Shown here piece after piece: positions 42,329 to 54,079 of a stretch of DNA of 64,000 nt (its first letter is position 1; every line of letters starts with the position of its first letter). Under the pieces are notes generated by a model, which ran no database searches, was not told the origin of the DNA, and saw only the letters and a program-made list of their open reading frames with translations. Both the position numbers and the translations under genes were made by a program. This DNA comes from Syntrophales bacterium (GTDB lineage Bacteria; Desulfobacterota; Syntrophia; Syntrophales; UBA6807). The stretch lies in NCBI GenBank assembly GCA_040767195.1, contig JAXGPA010000004.1, forward strand, positions 32,001-96,000, read 5' to 3'.

Positions 42329-44368
42329 ATGGCCACAAAGACGAGACTCTCCAGAATCCGGAACATCGGGATCATCGCCCACATCGACGCCGGGAAAACA
42401 ACGGTCACCGAGAGGATCCTCTACTATACCGGAAAATCCTATAAAATCGGCGAAGTTCACGATGGCGAGGCGGTCATGGACTGGATGCCCCAGGAGCAGG
42501 AGCGGGGCATCACCATCACGTCAGCCGTGACGACCTGCGAGTGGAAAAATCACGAAATACACATCATAGACACGCCGGGCCACGTGGATTTCACCGTCGA
42601 GGTGGAACGGTCCCTCCGGGTTCTCGACGGCGCCATCGTCGTCTTCGACGCCGTGGGCGGCGTGGAACCCCAGTCGGAAACGGTCTGGCACCAGGCGGAC
42701 AAGTACCGGGTTCCCAAGATCGCCTTCATCAACAAGATGGATCGCGTGGGCGCCGAATATTTCGGCACCATCGACATGATGCGGGAGCGCTTCAACTCCA
42801 CCCCTCTCATCGTCCAGATCCCCTGTTTCCGGGACAGGGAATACATCGGGTCGGTGGATCTTATCGGAAAGAAACTCATTCTCTGGGACGACGCTTCCCT
42901 CGGAAGCGCGGTGAGCTACGGGGACATCCCGCCCGAATTCCGGGACGAGGCGGACGAGCGGCGTGAAGGCCTCATCGAGACCCTCGCCGAGTTGGACGAC
43001 GACATGGCGGACAGGTACCTGGCGGGGGAGGAGATCCCCGACGGGGATCTCGTCGCCGCCGTCCGGAAGGCCACCCTGTCCCTCAAGGGCGTACCGGTCT
43101 ACTGCGGCGCGGCCCTGAAGAACAAGGGGGTTCAACCGGTCCTGGACGGAGTCGTCGATTTTCTGCCGTCTCCCGAGGACGTTCCCCCCATCGAGGGGAT
43201 CAATCCCCTCACCGAGGAAAGGGAAAAGCGGGCGAGCAGCGAAAAGGGGCCTCTCGCCGCCCTTGTCTTCAAGGTCATGATGATGGAGGAAGGCCGGAAG
43301 GTTTCCTTTCTCAGGATCTACTCGGGAAAAATCAGGGCCGGGGGCGACGTCTACAACGTGATCCGGGGCCGGAAGGAAAAAGTCTCCCGGCTTCTCAAGA
43401 TGCACGCCAACAAGCGGGAGAGGATCGACGAGGCCGGGGCGGGACACATCGTCGGGGTCGTGGGCCTCAAGACGGCCTCGACGGGGGACACCATCTGCGA
43501 CGAAAACCACCCCATCGTCCTGGAGAGAATCGAGTTCTACGAACCCGTCATCAGCCGGGCCATCGAGGCGAAAACCCCCCAGGACCAGGAAAAGCTGAGC
43601 CAGGCACTGGAAAAACTCACCGACGAGGACCCCACCCTCATCGTCCGGTACGACGATGAAACGGCCCAGACCGTCCTGTCGGGCATGGGGGAACTGCACC
43701 TGGAAATCGTCATCGACCGGCTCACCCGGGATTTCAACACGAACGTCAACGTGGGAAAACCCCGGGTCGTTTACCGGGAGGCCATCACCCAGGAAGTGGA
43801 CGGCGAGGGAAAATTCCAGAAGGAACTGGGAGACAGGAAACATTTCGGCCACGTGCGCATTCACCTGGAGCCGAATCGAAGGGGGGAAGGCATCAAGATT
43901 CTTAACGAAATTGACCCTTCGACAATTCCGCCGGATTACCACGCCTTCATCCGGGAGGGTATCGAGGACGCCCTTTCGAGCGGTGTCGTGTCCGGGTATC
44001 CCGTGACGGACGTGGTCGTGACGATGACCGGCGGGACCCACCGGGAGGGGGAATCCACGCCGGCAGGGTACCGCATCGCCGCCGCCGCCGCCTTCCGTGA
44101 AGCCTCCCTCCAGGGCGGTCCCATCCTCATGGAACCGATCATGAACGTGGACATCCTGACGCCCAGCGAGTTCATGGGAGACGTCATCGGGGACATCAAC
44201 AGCCGGAAGGGTGAGGTGCAGAACGTCGCTCCCAAGGGAAACGTGAGCGAGATCCGCGCCCGGGTTCCTCTCAGGCAGATGTTCGGCTATTCCACGGATC
44301 TCCGATCCGCCACCCAGGGCCGCGCCACCTTCACCATGCAGTTCCTTCGATATGACCGGGCACCGTGA
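42329..44368 (+). CDS. fusA: Elongation factor G paralog (stand-alone, divergent domain IV)
   Basis: [47 protein letters not shown]. Confidence 0.92.
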
Positions 44369-44542
44369 ACCCGTGCCGGACCTTTTTGCCGGCAATCCCC
44401 TTTTTTGACCATAATCTTGTGTCGTCCCGTAAAATCCGCTATGATCCTGAAAATTCCGACCGTTGTTTTCACCCGTCAAGAGAGCGGCACCGGCGGCGTC
44501 TCGCCGGGCCGGGCGCAACGATTTGAAAAGGAGAGACTTCCC

Positions 44543-46426
44543 ATGACCGAAAAAAGCAGACCCGCCTTTCTTCCTTTTCTTCTCGGCCTTATCCTCCTGG
44601 GAATGGTCGAACCGGCGCAGGCCCTCGCAAGCGGCGGTGAAGGCGGTTCGAGCCTCCTCACCGGCATCAGCGCGAGCATCCTGGCGGCCACGGTTTTCGC
44701 CTATTTCGCCAGCATGATCCGGCAGCCCCTCATTCTCGCCTACGTCCTCGCCGGCGTGGTCATCGGGCCCCAGTTCGGGCTGGGGCTGGTTCAAAGCCAG
44801 GAAGACATCCAGACCATCTCGGAAATCGGCCTCATCCTTCTCCTTTTCATCATCGGCCTGGAACTGGACCTCAAAAAGCTGAAGGAATCGGGAAAATCCC
44901 TCGTCCTGACCGGTGTTTCCCAGTTCGTCCTGTGCCTGGCCATGGGTCTCGGGTTTTTCATGCTTCTCGGGGTCACCCTGGGGGCGGCCTCGGGGCAGGC
45001 CACATACGAAATTCTCGGCATCACGGTCAACGGAGGCCCCTACGACCTCCTCTACCTGGCCGCATGCCTCTCGCTAAGCAGCACCGCCATCGTGGTCAAG
45101 CTCCTCTACGACAAGTTCGAACTGGACACCCTGGCGGGCCGGATCACCCTCGGCGTTCTCGTTTTCCAGGACCTCTGGGCCATCATCCTCCTCGGCGTCC
45201 AGCCCAACCTGGCCGACCCCAAGGTGCTTCTCATCCTCTGGTCCTTCGCCAAGGGGGGGCTGCTCGTTCTCATCAGCCTGCTCATCAGCCGGTACGTCCT
45301 GAACATCGTCTTCCGGCAGATCGCCAAGCTCCCGGAACTCGTCCTCGTGGCCTCCCTGGGCTGGTGCTTCTTCGTCTGCGGCGTCGCCCACATCTTCAAC
45401 CTGTCCGTCGAAATGGGCGCCCTCATCGCCGGGGTTTCCATCTCCACCTTCCCCTACAACCTGGACATCATCTCCAAGATCGTCAGCATCCGGGACTTCT
45501 TTGTAACGCTTTTCTTCGTGGGCCTCGGGATGATGATCCCCAACCCCATGATGAACCCGGGAATTCTTTTCATCGCCCTCGTCGTCGCCGCCTTTCTCAT
45601 CGCCACGCGGTTCCTCTCCGTCTTTCCCGTCCTGTACGGCCTTAAAAACGGCCACCGGGTGAGCCTTCTTTCCGCCATCAACCTGTCCCAGCTCTCCGAG
45701 TTCGCCCTGGTCATCGCCGCCATCGGGATCAAGCCCGAGTACGGGCACGTGGGACCGGACACGCTGAGCATCGTCATTTTCGTCTTTGTCATCACCTCCA
45801 TCACGTCGACCTACATGATCCAGTACAGCCACGGGCTGCAGAAAGGCTTGAGCGGCCTCCTTTCCGCCGTAGGCATCGGGGACATACGGGACGCCCCCTC
45901 CGACGCGGCCGCCGAAGACTTCAAGGAAATCGCCATCCTCGGGTTCTACCGCGTCGCCAGTTCACTGGTCCGGGAAATCCTCGACCAGAGGCCGGAGCTT
46001 CAGGACAAGATCGTCGTCGTCGACTACAACCCCACCGTCCACCAGAAGCTGAAGGCCCTGGGGGTGACGGTTTACTACGGCGACATCAGCAACATGGAGA
46101 CCCTGCACCATGCCAGGATCGAGGGCGCCCGGGTCGTCGTTTCCACCATTCCCGATTCCATCCTCGTGGGGACGAGCAACCTGAAACTGATCCGGCAGAT
46201 GCAGCGGCTTTGCCCCAACGCCCGGGTGGTGGTGACGGCGGAAAACATCAAGAGCGCCCTCGAGATGTATAACGAAGGCGCCGATTACGTGATCCTCCCC
46301 CGGGTCATCACGGCCGGGCACTTTCTTCCCGTCCTCGAATCCCTCGTCAGGGGCGAGGGGAAGGAACTCAAGTCCGGCGAGATGGCGAAACTTAAAAATC
46401 GCGGCGAGGAAGTCGTCCTCATCTGA
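44543..46426 (+). CDS. CPA2 cation:proton antiporter with C-terminal RCK/KTN domain (Kef-like)
   Basis: LLFIIGLELD, LSSTAIVVK, VFQDL, SQLSEFA; C-terminal ILGFYR, YYGD, GADYVILP. Confidence 0.88.
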   Translation: MTEKSRPAFLPFLLGLILLGMVEPAQALASGGEGGSSLLTGISASILAATVFAYFASMIRQPLILAYVLAGVVIGPQFGLGLVQSQEDIQTISEIGLILLLFIIGLELDLKKLKESGKSLVLTGVSQFVLCLAMGLGFFMLLGVTLGAASGQATYEILGITVNGGPYDLLYLAACLSLSSTAIVVKLLYDKFELDTLAGRITLGVLVFQDLWAIILLGVQPNLADPKVLLILWSFAKGGLLVLISLLISRYVLNIVFRQIAKLPELVLVASLGWCFFVCGVAHIFNLSVEMGALIAGVSISTFPYNLDIISKIVSIRDFFVTLFFVGLGMMIPNPMMNPGILFIALVVAAFLIATRFLSVFPVLYGLKNGHRVSLLSAINLSQLSEFALVIAAIGIKPEYGHVGPDTLSIVIFVFVITSITSTYMIQYSHGLQKGLSGLLSAVGIGDIRDAPSDAAAEDFKEIAILGFYRVASSLVREILDQRPELQDKIVVVDYNPTVHQKLKALGVTVYYGDISNMETLHHARIEGARVVVSTIPDSILVGTSNLKLIRQMQRLCPNARVVVTAENIKSALEMYNEGADYVILPRVITAGHFLPVLESLVRGEGKELKSGEMAKLKNRGEEVVLI

Positions 46427-46467
46427 AAAGACGGAAGAGTTGCCAGGCGCGGGAAAGGAAGCGCTTC

Positions 46468-48567
46468 ATGAGCTACGACGTTTTTTATCCCACCGAGGGA
46501 ATCCTGGAAGGCTTTTTTCGAATCAGCAATTTTCTCTCCGCACCTTCCAGCGTCGACGACATTCTCCAGAACGTTCTCGACGAAATCGTGAACACCATGG
46601 GATTTCAGCGGGGCATCATCTGCCTTCTCGACGATGCAAGGGAAAACCTCATCACCAAGGTCGTCAAGAACTACAGCCCCGAGGAGGCCGACCGGGCCTT
46701 TTCCCTGAACCTCAACATCCACAAGCACGACTGCCTCGAGACCCGGGTGGTGAAAAGCGGCCGGTACATCGCCCTGGAAGACTCGGAGCGGGACCCGAGA
46801 ATCACCGAGACGGACCGCAAGATCACCCACTTCTACAAGCGGGGCTCCACCTTTTACGCGGCCCTGAAAATAGAGCAGGAAGTCATCGGCATCATCTGCC
46901 TGTGGTCGAAGGAGAAAACGAAATTTTCCGATGAGGAAATCAATGTCCTTCTGACCTTCGCCAACCAGATCAGCATCGTCATTCACAACACCCGCCTTTT
47001 CGAGGACAACCGGAAGCGGATCGAGCGGCTCCTTCTCCTGCAGGAAGCCGTGTCCTGTCTCATTGGAAACTACTCCCTCGACAATCTCCATGAAATCACC
47101 ATCCGGCACGCCCTGCTCATCGGGGAAGCGAGCCGGGCCTTCGTGTATTTCCAGGACGCGGAAAAGCAGAAGCACCTTCTGAGCGACGGAAAGACGGTTT
47201 TCCTGGAAAAAAGCGCGGACATGACGGAGAAAATCGAACGGGGCATCGTCCGGCGGGCCCTGGAAAAAGACAGCATCATCCTTGTCACCGGGGAGATGGA
47301 ACCGGCCCCCGAGTTTCTTTACGACGACGTCTCGTCGGAGCTGGCCGTCCCCTTCCGCATCACTGACAAATTCCGGGGCGTTCTTTACCTCGGAAGCCGC
47401 CACGGGACGTTTTCATCGGACCAGGTCAACTTTCTGGACATTCTCATGAAAAACGCCGCGGCCTCGTACGACAACGCCATCATGCACTCCCTCCTGTCCC
47501 GGGAAGCCAGGTCCCTGAAGAAGGAAGTGGAAATGTTGAAGGAAAGGGAGGACAAGCTCCTCGGCTTTCACGACATTCTCGGAAAATCCCCGAAAATGCA
47601 GGGTGTGTTTCACGTCATACGGGAGGTGTCGAAGCACAACACGAACATCCTTCTCCAGGGGGAGAGCGGGACGGGCAAAGAGCTCTTCGCCCGGGCGATT
47701 CACCGGCAGGGAGACCGGCGGACCCGTCACTTCGTCGATGTCAACTGTGCCGCCATCCCCGGTACCCTCCTGGAAAGCGAGCTGTTCGGCTATGAGGCAG
47801 GGGCTTTTACCGATGCCCGGAAACGCAAGATCGGCCTTCTGGAATACGCCAACGGCGGGACGCTCTTCCTGGACGAGATCGGCGACATGGGGTTTCAACT
47901 CCAGGCCAAATTTCTCCGGATGCTCGAGGACGGCTACATCCGCCGACTCGGGGGAAACGAGAACATCCCCGTCGACGTACGCTTCATTTTCGCCACCAAC
48001 CGGGACCTGAACCGCATGGTTTCCGAAGGCCTTTTCAGGGAAGATCTTTATTACCGCATCAGCGTCGTTCCCATCGTCCTGCCGCCCCTGCGGGAAAGGG
48101 AAGAGGACATCCTCCTTCTTGGCCGGCACTACATCGAGGAATTCAACGTAAAATTCAACCGTCGCGTCCAGGGGTTCACCGACGAGGCGGAAAAGCGCCT
48201 CCTTCAGTATCCCTGGCCGGGCAACGTCCGGGAGCTGAAAAACATCATCGAAAGGGTCATGATCCTGCAGAACGTGGGAACATTCATTTCCCGGGAGGAC
48301 CTTCCCCGGGAGATCAGCCGCTCTTCCGGCCCGGTCCCGCTGACGCCTCCTGATGCGTTCATTCCCGATCTGAACGGCGATCCCATCCCGTATCGTAAAT
48401 TGGTCCTTGGCATGACCAACCGGTTCAAGGAACGGATCATCAGGCAGACCATCGAGCTGACCGGCGGGAACAAAACCGAGGCCGCCCGCCGCCTGGGGAT
48501 ATCCCGGTACGCCCTGTTGCGGGAATTAAAAAAACTTGAAATAAAACAAGATATTACAGAACATTGA
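46468..48567 (+). CDS. sigma54-dependent enhancer-binding protein (GAF-GAF-AAA+-Fis HTH)
   Basis: GESGTGKE, ESELFGYEAGAFTDA, LFLDEIG, FREDLYYR, WPGNVRELKN, GNKTEAARRLGISR; two N-terminal GAF-like domains. Confidence 0.92.
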   Translation: MSYDVFYPTEGILEGFFRISNFLSAPSSVDDILQNVLDEIVNTMGFQRGIICLLDDARENLITKVVKNYSPEEADRAFSLNLNIHKHDCLETRVVKSGRYIALEDSERDPRITETDRKITHFYKRGSTFYAALKIEQEVIGIICLWSKEKTKFSDEEINVLLTFANQISIVIHNTRLFEDNRKRIERLLLLQEAVSCLIGNYSLDNLHEITIRHALLIGEASRAFVYFQDAEKQKHLLSDGKTVFLEKSADMTEKIERGIVRRALEKDSIILVTGEMEPAPEFLYDDVSSELAVPFRITDKFRGVLYLGSRHGTFSSDQVNFLDILMKNAAASYDNAIMHSLLSREARSLKKEVEMLKEREDKLLGFHDILGKSPKMQGVFHVIREVSKHNTNILLQGESGTGKELFARAIHRQGDRRTRHFVDVNCAAIPGTLLESELFGYEAGAFTDARKRKIGLLEYANGGTLFLDEIGDMGFQLQAKFLRMLEDGYIRRLGGNENIPVDVRFIFATNRDLNRMVSEGLFREDLYYRISVVPIVLPPLREREEDILLLGRHYIEEFNVKFNRRVQGFTDEAEKRLLQYPWPGNVRELKNIIERVMILQNVGTFISREDLPREISRSSGPVPLTPPDAFIPDLNGDPIPYRKLVLGMTNRFKERIIRQTIELTGGNKTEAARRLGISRYALLRELKKLEIKQDITEH

Positions 48568-48585
48568 GGGGTGCCCCCGAGGCAC

Positions 48586-48690
48586 GTTCGCATAACGCAC
48601 ATATTGTGCTTTAAACGCACTTTCAATGCCTGTCAGTATATCCGCGCCAACTTCTCCAAAGGACCCCTTCAATGTGTGCGTTTATCACCC
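48586..48690. promoter_or_regulatory. Three imperfect GTGCG-N5-CGCAC palindromes, candidate UAS
   Basis: GTTCGCATAACGCAC (48586), GTGCTTTAAACGCAC (48606), GTGCGTTTATCACCC (48676). Confidence 0.55.
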
Positions 48691-48839
48691 ACCCGGCGAT
48701 GCCGATCCGTCCCTTTTTAATCCCTTTCCGGAACCCGCCTTTAGAATTCCCTTTTTCTTCCCTAAATATTATTAGTATTATTAAGGAATTATGGACTTAA
48801 TTCATTTTACGGTTTTTTTTATTGACCTCTTGTGTCCCC

Positions 48840-48855
48840 TGGCATCAGCCTTGCA
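48840..48855 (+). promoter_or_regulatory. sigma54 (-24/-12) promoter
   Basis: TGGCATCAGCCTTGCA, close to consensus TGGCAC-N5-TTGCA; preceded by an AT-rich tract at 48765-48825. Confidence 0.8.
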
Positions 48856-48866
48856 AAACTAAAAGA

Positions 48867-49259
48867 TCAAAAGACACGGTTCCCGAAAATCGGAAAACGT
48901 TGAGGAATGAAGCAGGGGGGAAAGAAAAAGGAAGAAACGCGAAGAGAAAGCGGCATGAACAAGGACGAGCGTTTTTTTCTCCCCCAAAGCGAAAAAGAGG
49001 AACCGGACACGGAAAGCAAAGGCGCCGAAGGGCCGGATCGGAAAAAAGAAAACCTGAGCGAACTTTTTTTCCTGTCCGACATCCCCTTGAATGAGTAAAG
49101 AGCTGGAAACTCCAACAAATTGCCTAACGGTGGGTGGTTTTATGTTCCCTCCTTTCCACCCACCGGCCCCCTTTTTCGGTAATCTGTGGGGGGAGGTGGT
49201 AAACCTCTTCACAGTCCCTATAGAAAGACGGTGACAGCGACCCTGTCACCGTTTTTTTT
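48867..49259 (+). ncRNA. Putative sigma54-dependent structured RNA (may also encode a 47-63 aa peptide ending at 49098)
   Basis: Lies between a sigma54 promoter and a terminator; several hairpins, including a 10-bp stem with a CCUCCUUU loop. Confidence 0.5.
49228..49259 (+). terminator. Rho-independent terminator of the sigma54 transcript
   Basis: ACGGTGACAG-CGACC-CTGTCACCGT followed by T7. Confidence 0.85.
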
Positions 49260-49383
49260 GCCCCTATCCTCCCGGAAGCCGCACGACCGGATCTCGCTTA
49301 ACGGGACGTCCCGGGAAAAGGATATCCCGGGACAGAGACGCCAGGCGAAAACGGTGTAAGAGGCCCCGCGGCACTCGGGATCC

Positions 49384-50478
49384 TTACACGTTGAAGCGGA
49401 AATAGACGATGTCCCCGTCACAGATGGCGTAATCCCGCCCCTCGGACCGGACAAGGCCTTTTTCACGGGCCGCCGCCAGGCTCCCCGAAGACCGAAAAAC
49501 ATCGAAACCGACCACCTCGGCCCGGATGAAGCCTTTTTCCATGTCCGTGTGGATTTTACCCGCCGCCTCGGGGGCCTTCGTCCCGTGACGGACCGTCCAG
49601 GCCCGAAGCTCGGGCCCCGCCGTGGTGTAGAAGGTGATGAGGTCCAGAAGCCGGTAGCCGGCGTGCACCAGGTGTTCCAGGCCCGATTCCGTCAGTCCCA
49701 GGTCGGCCAGGAATTCCGACCGCTCCGCCTCATCGAGAAGCACGATTTCCGATTCCAGGTCCCCGCAGATGGGAATCACCTCTGACCCTTCCCGCTTTGC
49801 GATCTCGTCCAGGCTTTCGATGTATCCCCTGTCACCCTTCAGAACCTCCTCGCTCACATTGGCCACGTAAAGCACTTTCTTGTCCGTGAGAAGGTGCAGC
49901 TCTTCGAGCATGTCACGGTCGCCGGGATCGACGTCCAGGTTGCGGACCGGCGTCCCTTTCGCCAGGGCCTCACGAATGCCTTCGCAAAAAGCCAGTTCCC
50001 GCTGCTTCCCCCGGTCGCCCGCCTTGGCCTGCCGGTGAATCCTCTCCAACCGCCGCTCCACCGTCTCCAGGTCGGCCAGGACGAGTTCCATGTTGACGAT
50101 TTCCACGTCCCGGACGGGGTCCACGGGTCCGTAAACGTGAACCACGTCGGGGCTGTCAAAGCACCGGACGATGTGAACGACCGCCTCGACGTCCCGGATG
50201 TGCCCGAGAAACTTGTTTCCCAGTCCCTCGCCGCGGCTCGCGCCGCGGACGAGCCCGGCGATGTCGAGAAACTGCATCACCGTCGGGGTCGTTTTCGGCG
50301 GCTTCAGAACGGATGAGATGTAATCGAGTCTTTTGTCCGGGACACGGACGACCCCCACGTTGGGGTCGATGGTGCAGAAGGGATAGTTCGCACACTCGGC
50401 CCCCGCGGCGGTCAGGGCATTGAAAATGGTCGATTTTCCCACGTTGGGCAGGCCGATGATGCCGCATCGAAACCCCAC
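49384..50478 (-). CDS. ychF: Redox-regulated ATPase YchF
   Basis: GIIGLPNVGKST, ANYPFCTIDPN, DIAGLVRGAS.GEGLGN, AAGKIHTD.EKGFIRAEV, FRFNV. Confidence 0.95.
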   Translation of the reverse strand: MGFRCGIIGLPNVGKSTIFNALTAAGAECANYPFCTIDPNVGVVRVPDKRLDYISSVLKPPKTTPTVMQFLDIAGLVRGASRGEGLGNKFLGHIRDVEAVVHIVRCFDSPDVVHVYGPVDPVRDVEIVNMELVLADLETVERRLERIHRQAKAGDRGKQRELAFCEGIREALAKGTPVRNLDVDPGDRDMLEELHLLTDKKVLYVANVSEEVLKGDRGYIESLDEIAKREGSEVIPICGDLESEIVLLDEAERSEFLADLGLTESGLEHLVHAGYRLLDLITFYTTAGPELRAWTVRHGTKAPEAAGKIHTDMEKGFIRAEVVGFDVFRSSGSLAAAREKGLVRSEGRDYAICDGDIVYFRFNV

Positions 50479-50651
50479 GGCTCTTCTCCTCTCTCAATCG
50501 TTGTGACGGCCGTGAAACCTGCCGGCCGGGCAACCGGGCATCCCCTCAAAAGGCCGGGGCCACCCGCCGCGCCGCGAAGGATCCCGCCAGCCGCTGAAGG
50601 ATACTAAAAACGGTTTCCCCTCGCCTGTCAAGCCCCGCGAAGACAGGGCCG

Positions 50652-50682
50652 AAAAAAAGGCGGCCCCTGGGGGCCGCCTTTT
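50652..50682 (-). terminator. Rho-independent terminator after hppA
   Basis: AAAAGGCGGCCC/GGGCCGCCTTTT hairpin with T7 on the minus strand. Confidence 0.8.
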
Positions 50683-50703
50683 CTGAAAAAGCTTTCAGTC
50701 CGT

Positions 50704-52758
<2,055 letters not shown>

Positions 52759-52781
52759 AACCTCCGCCTATACCTCCTTAC

Positions 52782-53360
52782 TTAATTTTTGTGTGACCTT
52801 ACGTTCACCCTGTTCATAGCCCGCTGAGGACCCGACGCCAGTACATCCTTCACAGCACCGGCCGCCCTTTCCGCCGCAGCCGCCGCGACAGGCATCTCGT
52901 CCTCAGAAAAACGCCGCAAAACATACCGTTCCACCGCCGTTCCATCCCCCGGCCGCCCGATCCCGATTCGAACCCGGATGAAATCGGCCCGGCCCGTCTC
53001 CCCGATGATCGACTCGATGCCCCGGTGGCCGGCGCTTCCGCCGCCCGCCTTGACCCGCACATCCCCGAGGGGAAGATCGATGTCATCGTGGACGACGATC
53101 ATCCGTCCTAAATCCAGCCGGTAGAAATTGGCAAACCGGACCACGGCGAACCCGCTCCGGTTCATGTACGTCTCCGGTTTCACGAGGAGAACATCCTTAC
53201 CGGAGAGAATTCCCCGGCCGATCCGGGCATCGAATTTTTTTTGAGAGAACGAAATGCCCTCCTCTTCAGAGAGGACATCCAGGGCCATGTACCCCATGTT
53301 GTGCCGTGTCCGGGCGTAACTCTCGCCGGGGTTGCCGAGACCGACTACCGCCCAGTCCAC
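52782..53360 (-). CDS. pth: Peptidyl-tRNA hydrolase
   Basis: GLGNPG, TRHNMG, KPETYMNRSG, VVHDDIDL, GGSAGHRG. Confidence 0.93.
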   Translation of the reverse strand: MDWAVVGLGNPGESYARTRHNMGYMALDVLSEEEGISFSQKKFDARIGRGILSGKDVLLVKPETYMNRSGFAVVRFANFYRLDLGRMIVVHDDIDLPLGDVRVKAGGGSAGHRGIESIIGETGRADFIRVRIGIGRPGDGTAVERYVLRRFSEDEMPVAAAAAERAAGAVKDVLASGPQRAMNRVNVRSHKN

Positions 53361-53419
53361 CGGGGCGCCGGTGTTTTCTTTCCTGCAAATCCAAGAAAGT
53401 ATTCTCGACTTGAGGTCAA

Positions 53420-54079
53420 TCAGCTTTCCTCACCCTCTGCCGGCGCCTCTTCCGCGGGACCGCCGGCCTCTTCCGCCTCTTCCCCGGCCCCCTCAAGTCC
53501 TGCCTGGGCGCTTGTCCGGGTCACGGCGATGTGGACGAGAACGACGTCTTCCGGATCCAGCACGCGAACCCCCTCGGGAAGCGGAACGTCGCCGACTCTC
53601 AGGGCATCTCCCACGTTCAGGGGGGCAATGTCCAGTTCCACCGATTCGGGGATCAGCCCGGGAAGCCCCGCGACCTTCAATTCCCGCTTGGGGTGCTGAA
53701 GATCCCCGCCGCTTTCCTGGCCGATGGCGCGCCCCTTGAGAATAACGGGGATTTCAATGGTCAGCTCACGGTCCATCCGGATCTCGTAAAAATCCGCATG
53801 GTCGAGACGTTTTTTCAGCGTATTGACCTGGACATCCTTGAGAACGGAGACTTTTTCCACGCTCCCGCCGTCACCCTGAAAGGACAGCTTCACAAAGACA
53901 CCCTCTTTTCTCTCTTTTTTCATGATGTCCAGGAGATCTTCGGTATCGACGGCAAGCATGATCGGTTCCTGCCCCGAACCGTAGAGGACGGCCGGGACGA
54001 AACCCCGGGCCCGCAGTCTCCGGGCAGGTCCTTTTTTCGACTCGTTTCGGACCTGGGCTTTCAATGTCACTGTTTCCAT
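53420..54079 (-). CDS. rplY: 50S ribosomal protein L25/Ctc
   Basis: ARRLR..G.VPAVLYG, HADF, acidic tail; conserved prs-rplY-pth order. Confidence 0.92.
   Translation of the reverse strand: METVTLKAQVRNESKKGPARRLRARGFVPAVLYGSGQEPIMLAVDTEDLLDIMKKERKEGVFVKLSFQGDGGSVEKVSVLKDVQVNTLKKRLDHADFYEIRMDRELTIEIPVILKGRAIGQESGGDLQHPKRELKVAGLPGLIPESVELDIAPLNVGDALRVGDVPLPEGVRVLDPEDVVLVHIAVTRTSAQAGLEGAGEEAEEAGGPAEEAPAEGEES

Follow-up and report, generated by a model that had tools for sequence, protein, structure and literature searches.

The window, a 64,000-nucleotide stretch of DNA, carries a genuine sigma54 module consisting of an activator gene, enhancer sites, a promoter and an RNA with an anti-Shine-Dalgarno (aSD) hairpin. 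With a probability of about one half, the module yields a dual-output transcript, a small protein together with a 3′ aSD RNA, from an enhancer-switched sigma54 promoter, and the hairpin loop pairs with ribosome-binding sites. The unit is built like CcaF1/CcsR and wired like Pxr, and it is a member of neither.

The activator gene, enhancer sites and promoter

The activator gene (46468..48567, + strand) encodes a sigma54 enhancer-binding protein of 699 aa, assigned from Pfam and its orthologues. The first-pass annotation had described a GAF-GAF activator, and the domain order of two GAF domains, Sigma54_activat (PF00158) and HTH_8 bears this out; PF00158 and HTH_8 exceed the cut-off of the Pfam search. 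Walker A (GESGTGKE) and Walker B (DE) are readable in the translation, so the protein combines the AAA+ domain, GAFTGA-type loop, Walker motifs and Fis-type HTH expected of this class. The loop is a GAFTDA variant, which recurs in 41 of 42 full-length copies. Orthologues were found in 33 of the 41 relatives sampled and the GAF region in 99 of the 121 genomes of the order, while a structural search with the GAF region at E 0.001 returned no solved relative. The convergent ychF GTPase gene (49384..50478, − strand; Pfam and the ORF list) lies outside the unit.

Three palindromes with the family consensus YGT(G/T)CG-N5-CG(C/A)ACR follow the activator gene as predicted enhancer binding sites. Site 1 (48585..48601) reads GTTCG-N5-CGCAC at 48586, site 2 (48605..48621), placed 20 bp farther on, reads GTGCT-N5-CGCAC at 48606, and site 3 (48675..48691), about 165 bp ahead of the promoter, reads GTGCG-N5-CACCC at 48676 with two mismatches. 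They are followed by an AT-rich tract (48760..48825) and by a sigma54 −24/−12 promoter (48840..48855, + strand; TGGCA-N6-TTGCA), recognised by its sequence and its recurrence among relatives, from which transcription would start near 48866-48867. The GTGCG-N5-CGCAC-like palindromes, the tract and the promoter had all been read from the sequence at first pass, and all were confirmed, the third palindrome with its two mismatches.

The comparison was based on 30 activator loci, the window's own included, selected by protein orthology only. The promoter and the aSD hairpin (SL1) lie within 1 kb past the activator stop in 26 of them. The other four comprise one locus that stops at a contig edge (L013), one with an insertion and the cassette farther on (L020), and two with none there (L022, L023). 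At least two enhancer-like palindromes precede the promoter in 26/26 loci, compared with none in downstream control stretches of equal length, and the usual spacing is a pair 20 bp apart with the third about 65–90 bp farther. Although imperfect in the window, the third palindrome keeps its position among relatives. Between enhancer and promoter, a perfect match to the IHF consensus occurs in 6/26 loci against 0.4 expected, and an IHF-like site with at most one mismatch to that consensus in 15/26 against 5.3 expected. The window has a one-mismatch site somewhere inside the 110 bp before the promoter, and the AT-rich tract 48760..48825 is a probable IHF bending site.

Copies of the cassette (promoter, ORF and hairpins) also occur away from the activator. 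Most of these detached copies keep two or three enhancer sites, which indicates that the sites are part of the cassette and that the activator likely works on them in trans. Genome G026 has the cassette with its enhancer sites and lacks an activator match.

Structure, conservation and distribution of the three-hairpin RNA

The 3′ part of the unit consists of three hairpins on the + strand. SL1 (49128..49165) has a perfect 10-bp stem (49128-49137/49156-49165) and an 18-nt loop ending in CCCUCCUUU, and is directly followed by a C5 tract (49167-49171). SL2 (49184..49214) is variable in sequence and covaries, with 9/9 pairs changed on both sides, and SL3 (49228..49259), a 10-bp stem followed by U8, is an intrinsic terminator. 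These elements had been outlined in the first-pass annotation and were recovered unchanged. The consensus terminator scan reported the 49228 hairpin for the minus strand only. In many relatives SL3 is a second aSD hairpin, whose aSD loop is gone in the window. The window has one aSD loop, a minority of loci have two or three, SL2 never bears one, and the hairpin module as a whole occurs in one to three copies on either side of differing small ORFs.

Folding of the complete 398-nt stretch gave a z of −2.1, with 4/100 shuffles equally good. As this fold is just modestly stable, the case for the RNA depends on conservation. Covariation behind orthologous activators, named at first pass as one check on the RNA, was found in the three stems: pairs changed on both sides account for 23 of the 29 in an alignment of 35 distinct rows, at least 15 of which came from a pattern fixing part of SL1 and which include non-independent kin. 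In this alignment 92.1% of cells pair, compared with 81.7% in shuffles and 37–56% in slid controls, and 5 of the 10 SL1 pairs show no variation. In the 26 loci picked by protein orthology alone, pairing holds in 258 of the 260 cells of SL1; G-U occurs 9 times and A-C 0 times, a bias that points to an RNA on the + strand.

Conservation of the SL1 stem and the C5 tract goes beyond what pairing requires; hardly any variation occurs in the stem GG(U/C)G(G/A)(G/A)(U/C)GG-UUU or in the C tract. The loop varies in its 5′ part, and its aSD core CCUCCUUU is found in 33 of 36 hairpin loops, so that stems and loop, on whose conservation the first-pass proposal had been staked, are indeed kept in relatives (promoter and SL1 in 26/30 orthologous loci). 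The 16S rRNA of the genome ends in ...CACCUCCUUU. In the fold computation the SL1 loop is unpaired with a mean probability of 0.96. Among the 290 CCTCCTTT sites on both strands of the genome, 2 lie inside a perfect stem of at least 10 bp, and both are members of the present hairpin family.

A model of the RNA built from the alignment matched 99 of the 121 genomes of the order, with one to seven matches per genome and 3 strong ones in the source genome. The presence of RNA and activator is concordant in 115/121 genomes, a figure in which two unlisted negatives per list are inferred and kin are not independent; moreover, the RNA usually adjoins the activator, which makes it partly trivial for draft genomes to lack both. 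Weak matches of 17.7–24.8 bits came from 11 of 146 genomes outside the order (150 were scanned, 4 of them order members), where the model gave at most 25 bits. Eight loci were aligned, seven of them from these weak matches, and none has the full architecture. Named hairpin-bearing records among the matches listed are mostly Syntrophaceae, Syntrophus, Syntrophales and unclassified deltaproteobacteria, and the order carrying the RNA family is therefore taken to be Syntrophales. About half of the matches listed in a pattern scan of the genome collection were chance matches without the stem. The claim that the RNA is undescribed stands as far as Rfam is concerned: no family came at or near its cut-off over 44000-54000, SL1-SL2 in the window drew none even when E was allowed to rise to 5, and there was no match at the gathering score in 9 related loci. 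A CsrC match on the terminator (14 bits) was discarded as chance.

The small ORF and signs of transcription

The first-pass annotation had seen no convincing gene in the roughly 390 nt behind the promoter. This does not hold, as an ORF of 63 aa (48907..49098, + strand; alternative start 48955) lies there, rich in K/E/S/D, with two [DE]-x(0-1)-FF-[LIV]-S-like motifs and a weak Shine-Dalgarno sequence. An ATG ORF of 60–88 aa ending 8–59 nt 5′ of SL1 is present in 20 of the 21 loci whose leader has at least 200 nt, compared with 0.65 expected from shuffles. The family shares a pair of FF-[LIV]-S-like motifs, separated by about 30 residues, and, throughout, LSD-x-PW. After FF the codons are altered while the residues are kept (Ser as TCC/TCG/TCA/AGT, Leu as CTT/CTG/CTC/CTA), always in an open frame. 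The indels of the two closest ORF pairs (6, 3 and 12 nt) are all multiples of three. Third-position changes are in excess in two mid-distance pairs (33 vs 17 and 10; 41 vs 18 and 20), an excess that is absent in the two closest pairs (0/8/7 and 7/7/9). Judged by these substitution patterns, ORF 48907-49098 is under coding selection, and the predicted transcript, with a coding-selected ORF inside it, has this trait in common with dual-function RNAs. Of the initial proposal of a purely regulatory RNA, the conserved, covarying aSD RNA is retained, and its solely non-coding nature is given up, the 5′ two thirds encoding a small protein.

The protein, which is probably disordered and charged, gave no lead in Pfam, NCBIfam, PDB or ESM Atlas. 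Its homologues (29 and 32) are unnamed or 'hypothetical', and the relatives' small proteins are 12–37% identical to that of the window. Of 53 genomic matches to a peptide profile, 52 lie directly 5′ of an RNA match; the profile, which overlooks some divergent copies, matches in 44 genomes vs 99/121 for the RNA. Shine-Dalgarno pairing at the ORF starts has a median of −1.7 kcal/mol vs −8.4 genome-wide, the latter inflated by the choice of starts with good sites. The hairpins stand without the ORF in 6/26 loci, including L011 and L028; five of these have 29–135 nt from the predicted start to SL1, and L025 has a longer leader. All six retain promoter, enhancer sites and hairpins, which indicates that the RNA is the core of the unit.

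Signs of transcription were sought in assembled contigs from four of 19 listed runs (X1, X6, X10 and X13), and these contigs carry neither strand, ends nor level. In a digester metatranscriptome (X1), contigs cover 48957-49056 at a depth of 506 with no differences and 49027-49149 at 191, while contigs of the activator gene have depths of 3.5–6 and none covers 48571-48917. A further X1 contig runs from 49120 across the hairpins into ychF at 11.3. These depths hint at an abundant transcript behind the promoter, whose absence had been put forward at first pass as grounds for abandoning the RNA. In run X13 the contigs at 48892-49070 and 49120-49172 are thin, with a depth of about 3, X6 covers the whole stretch evenly at about 7, resembling DNA, and X10 has no contigs in this region. 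The unit is probably expressed.

Mode of action, competing explanations and known systems

In the dual-output reading, the GAF-GAF activator would sense a small molecule, bind the three enhancer sites and turn on the promoter. The transcript of about 390 nt would then give two outputs. Its 5′ part would be translated into a charged protein of about 63 aa, whose two short hydrophobic motifs may engage a short-motif binding partner, and the 3′ three-hairpin RNA of about 140 nt may be excised by RNase E/G, a gene for which is present in the genome. The loop CCCUCCUUU would pair with ribosome-binding sites of the AAAGGAGG(G) type and lower translation without Hfq, by analogy with the cuckoo/NfeR1 RNAs. 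Since the ORF itself starts with a weak Shine-Dalgarno site, it would largely escape the aSD loop. Judging from the sequence and this analogy, target mRNAs would be repressed by loop pairing, and the unit probably damps the translation of other genes.

AAGGAGG lies upstream of 177 of 1910 rough gene calls, and the loop suits very many genes. No specific target stands out in the source genome, G000, to which the search with crude gene calls and duplex energies was confined; the top predictions, none of which is put forward as a target, were an acyl-CoA synthetase-like gene (C1 835954) and numerous genes for metabolism or transport. The idea that the extra bases of the loop match a genome-specific consensus of ribosome-binding sites found little support (GAA comes after GGAGG in 5.0%, against a background of 2.4%). 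Hfq and CsrA gave no match in G000, which is 98.8% complete, while control genomes matched, and ProQ was not found in G000 either. In digesters and sediments, Syntrophales break down fatty and aromatic acids at the limit of what thermodynamics allows. If the loop blocks strong ribosome-binding sites, translation control would be tied to a metabolic signal in organisms in which, as judged from G000, Hfq, CsrA and ProQ were not found. A dedicated activator, an enhancer motif and a small protein accompany the order-wide RNA family, so that every link from sensor and promoter to RNA seed and peptide is defined.

Other explanations account for parts of the same evidence. The hairpin might be a protein-binding module, either mimicking the tail of 16S rRNA so that it binds or titrates a protein that associates with ribosomes or binds RNA, or serving as a nuclease-processing or stability signal read via the stem and C tract. 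The nearly fixed stem and C tract, the one to three copies beside different small ORFs and the failure to find Hfq, CsrA and ProQ in G000 all fit such a module, which we regard as unlikely but worth keeping in view, because the invariant segment of the loop complements the Shine-Dalgarno core exactly and lies fully exposed, and the aSD loops of NfeR1, which is described as independent of Hfq, act through pairing (PMC10746234). It is rather doubtful that the circuit limits itself, the 3′ RNA being a broad Hfq-independent brake on mRNAs with strong Shine-Dalgarno sites and the spared 5′ protein binding the activator via its FF motifs and feeding back. A predicted fold of peptide and activator lends weak support to this feedback, with a score of 0.49, the highest among 3 controls being 0.00. 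This mark is attained by 116 of the 157 solved complexes and by 2 of the 215 mismatched ones, although just 18 of the 157, and both mismatches, attain it at 0.60 or under; the partner pLDDT is 38–39 and the runs share at least 41% of contacts.

Selection on the ORF and the position of the deepest RNA contigs over it would suit an ordinary small-protein mRNA whose hairpins are no more than a stabilising 3′ UTR and terminator. This is improbable given that the five short-leader loci and L025 keep promoter, enhancer sites and hairpins in the absence of the ORF, and that the RNA is far more widespread than matches to the peptide profile, incomplete as the profile is. The converse, an RNA that pairs while the ORF product has no function, appears equally improbable. 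Translation would here do no more than shield or time the RNA, and the Phe-Phe runs would be U-tracts that base-pair to the A/G-rich leader or act as a sensor of Phe-tRNA; the weak Shine-Dalgarno site, the low identity of the proteins, the pairing of U-tracts with A/G tracts in the predicted fold and the loss of the ORF from several lineages agree with it, whereas the residues retained after FF despite codon changes, the unbroken frame and the family-wide LSD-x-PW speak for a selected protein. Least credible, and by far, is the view that the element is a repeated extragenic palindrome, the end of a mobile element or an RNA from the minus strand that offers GGA to CsrA. One to seven matches per genome and a minus-strand loop reading AAGGA would be in keeping with it, but the position is fixed behind orthologous genes in many families, the G-U bias favours the + strand, the promoter and U-run are both oriented +, and CsrA was not found.

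Each design element of the dual-output unit has a precedent. Neither their combination nor either of the two sequence families seems to have been described in the literature searched, which held no description of the present RNA family (RNA-motif surveys in subscription journals were outside its scope) and no small RNA for Syntrophales. In Pseudomonas, the activator CbrB is reportedly followed by a sigma54 promoter and the A-rich CrcZ RNA of about 400 nt. CrcZ titrates Hfq/Crc. The comparison with CrcZ drawn at first pass fails, and the CrcZ and CsrB sponge readings drop out, as neither Hfq nor CsrA (nor ProQ) was found in G000; besides, the A-rich part of the present RNA is a reading frame.

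Pxr with PxrR/Nla19 of Myxococcus, likewise invoked at first pass, is matched in wiring and not in sequence. Pxr lies directly past a sigma54 activator and enhancer region, has a sigma54 promoter, three stem-loops, a C-rich first loop, and long and short forms (PMC5684412, PMC5568312). The present activator differs as a one-component GAF-GAF protein, the transcript contains an ORF and the loop is a true aSD. Identity with Pxr (RF01812) was rejected, its best score being 15.8 bits elsewhere in the genome vs a cut-off of 80, and PMC11928866 offered nothing on Pxr seeds. In the deltaproteobacterium Desulfovibrio vulgaris, the mapped target of the response regulator DVU0679 is Dv_sRNA2, just downstream of its own gene (PMC3333781). 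The present unit resembles it in having a regulator that targets an adjoining sRNA; the regulator there is two-component, unlike the present activator, and the RNA model R1 reaches at most 25 bits outside the order.

Closest in build are ccaF1-CcsR1-4 and the cuckoo RNAs, in which a small-protein ORF is co-transcribed with aSD-loop hairpins in the 3′ (or 5′) UTR (PMC8034643, PMC4615179, PMC10746234), and NfeR1 (cuckoo/alpha-r14) blocks ribosome-binding sites without Hfq (PMC10746234). They share with the present family a modular number of hairpins and paralogues. Cuckoo/CcsR/alpha-r14 units have two to four adjacent aSD hairpins, a number seen in the minority of present loci with two or three aSD loops and not in the window with its one. 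They are governed by RpoH, or by LsrB and NtrC repression, instead of sigma54 and a dedicated activator, belong to a different phylum, and lack the sequence conservation of the present stems. The cuckoo loop motif CCUCCUCCC occurs in 0 of the 36 loops, and the cuckoo CIN1 subgroup has an adjacent DUF1127 protein, whereas the 63-aa protein matches no Pfam or NCBIfam family. Neither sigma54 nor RpoN occurs in the dual-function RNA review PMC12612679. With VcdRP-type dual-function RNAs no homology is expected; the likeness is one of design, a small ORF joined to a separate base-pairing part (PMC8672173).

Genomic neighbours of the activator and a second RNA locus

The GAF activator gene of the window (46468-48567, plus strand) is preceded by a gene for a Kef-type cation/proton antiporter with a TrkA-N domain (44405-46426), which ends 41 bp upstream, and the two genes are possibly co-transcribed. 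A second locus of the RNA family defined by the anti-Shine-Dalgarno (aSD) hairpin was observed in the source genome, G000 (L031:4440-5100; contig C1, approximately 740443-741083, minus strand). The locus encodes a histidine kinase and an NtrC-type regulator, and around 200 nt 3' of the stop codon of the latter lies a sigma54-like promoter whose -12 box is a variant, followed in order by an aSD hairpin, an unrelated ORF of approximately 72 aa, and a complete copy of the three-hairpin RNA. This NtrC-type regulator is also found together with the hairpins in five related loci, all of which lack the enhancer triad of the GAF activator.

Hairpin amplification, leader variation, and detached copies

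The unit composed of the aSD hairpin (SL1) and the variable hairpin (SL2) is tandemly amplified in L016, which carries three aSD hairpins, and in L068 and L105, which shows that the RNA grows in a modular way. In some lineages (L015, L017, L010, L014, L025) an additional long leader hairpin with GAGACC...GGTCTC arms is located between the promoter and the ORF or SL1. Seven detached copies, distant from a GAF activator gene (L033, L055, L059, L107, L119, L132, L193), contain one aSD hairpin each, approximately 105 nt 3' of a sigma54 promoter, and in several of them a different short hydrophobic ORF (approximately 40-47 aa) lies 3' of the hairpin. SL1 alone, with no sigma54 promoter found upstream, precedes a 629-aa acyl-CoA-metabolism-like gene at L178, L184, L101, and L110.

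Other enhancer-like sites

A second enhancer triad, with spacings of 20 and 64 bp, is present in G000 at L197:3473-3730 (C1 363972-364056). It is accompanied by a GGCAC-N5-TTGC promoter, and 3' of both lie genes for an FrhB-like protein and for the alpha subunit of indolepyruvate:ferredoxin oxidoreductase; the triad is possibly a second target of the GAF activator. One similar palindrome with a sigma54 promoter (L198:2697-2895; G000 C9, approximately 13194) is flanked on one side by a different NtrC-type regulator and on the other by a nuo-like operon, and is probably that neighbouring regulator's own site. In a relative, G033, an identical enhancer pair occurs twice (L205; C2 955694 and 1029394), one occurrence being followed by an ORF which, from its sequence, we take to be ornithine cyclodeaminase-like.
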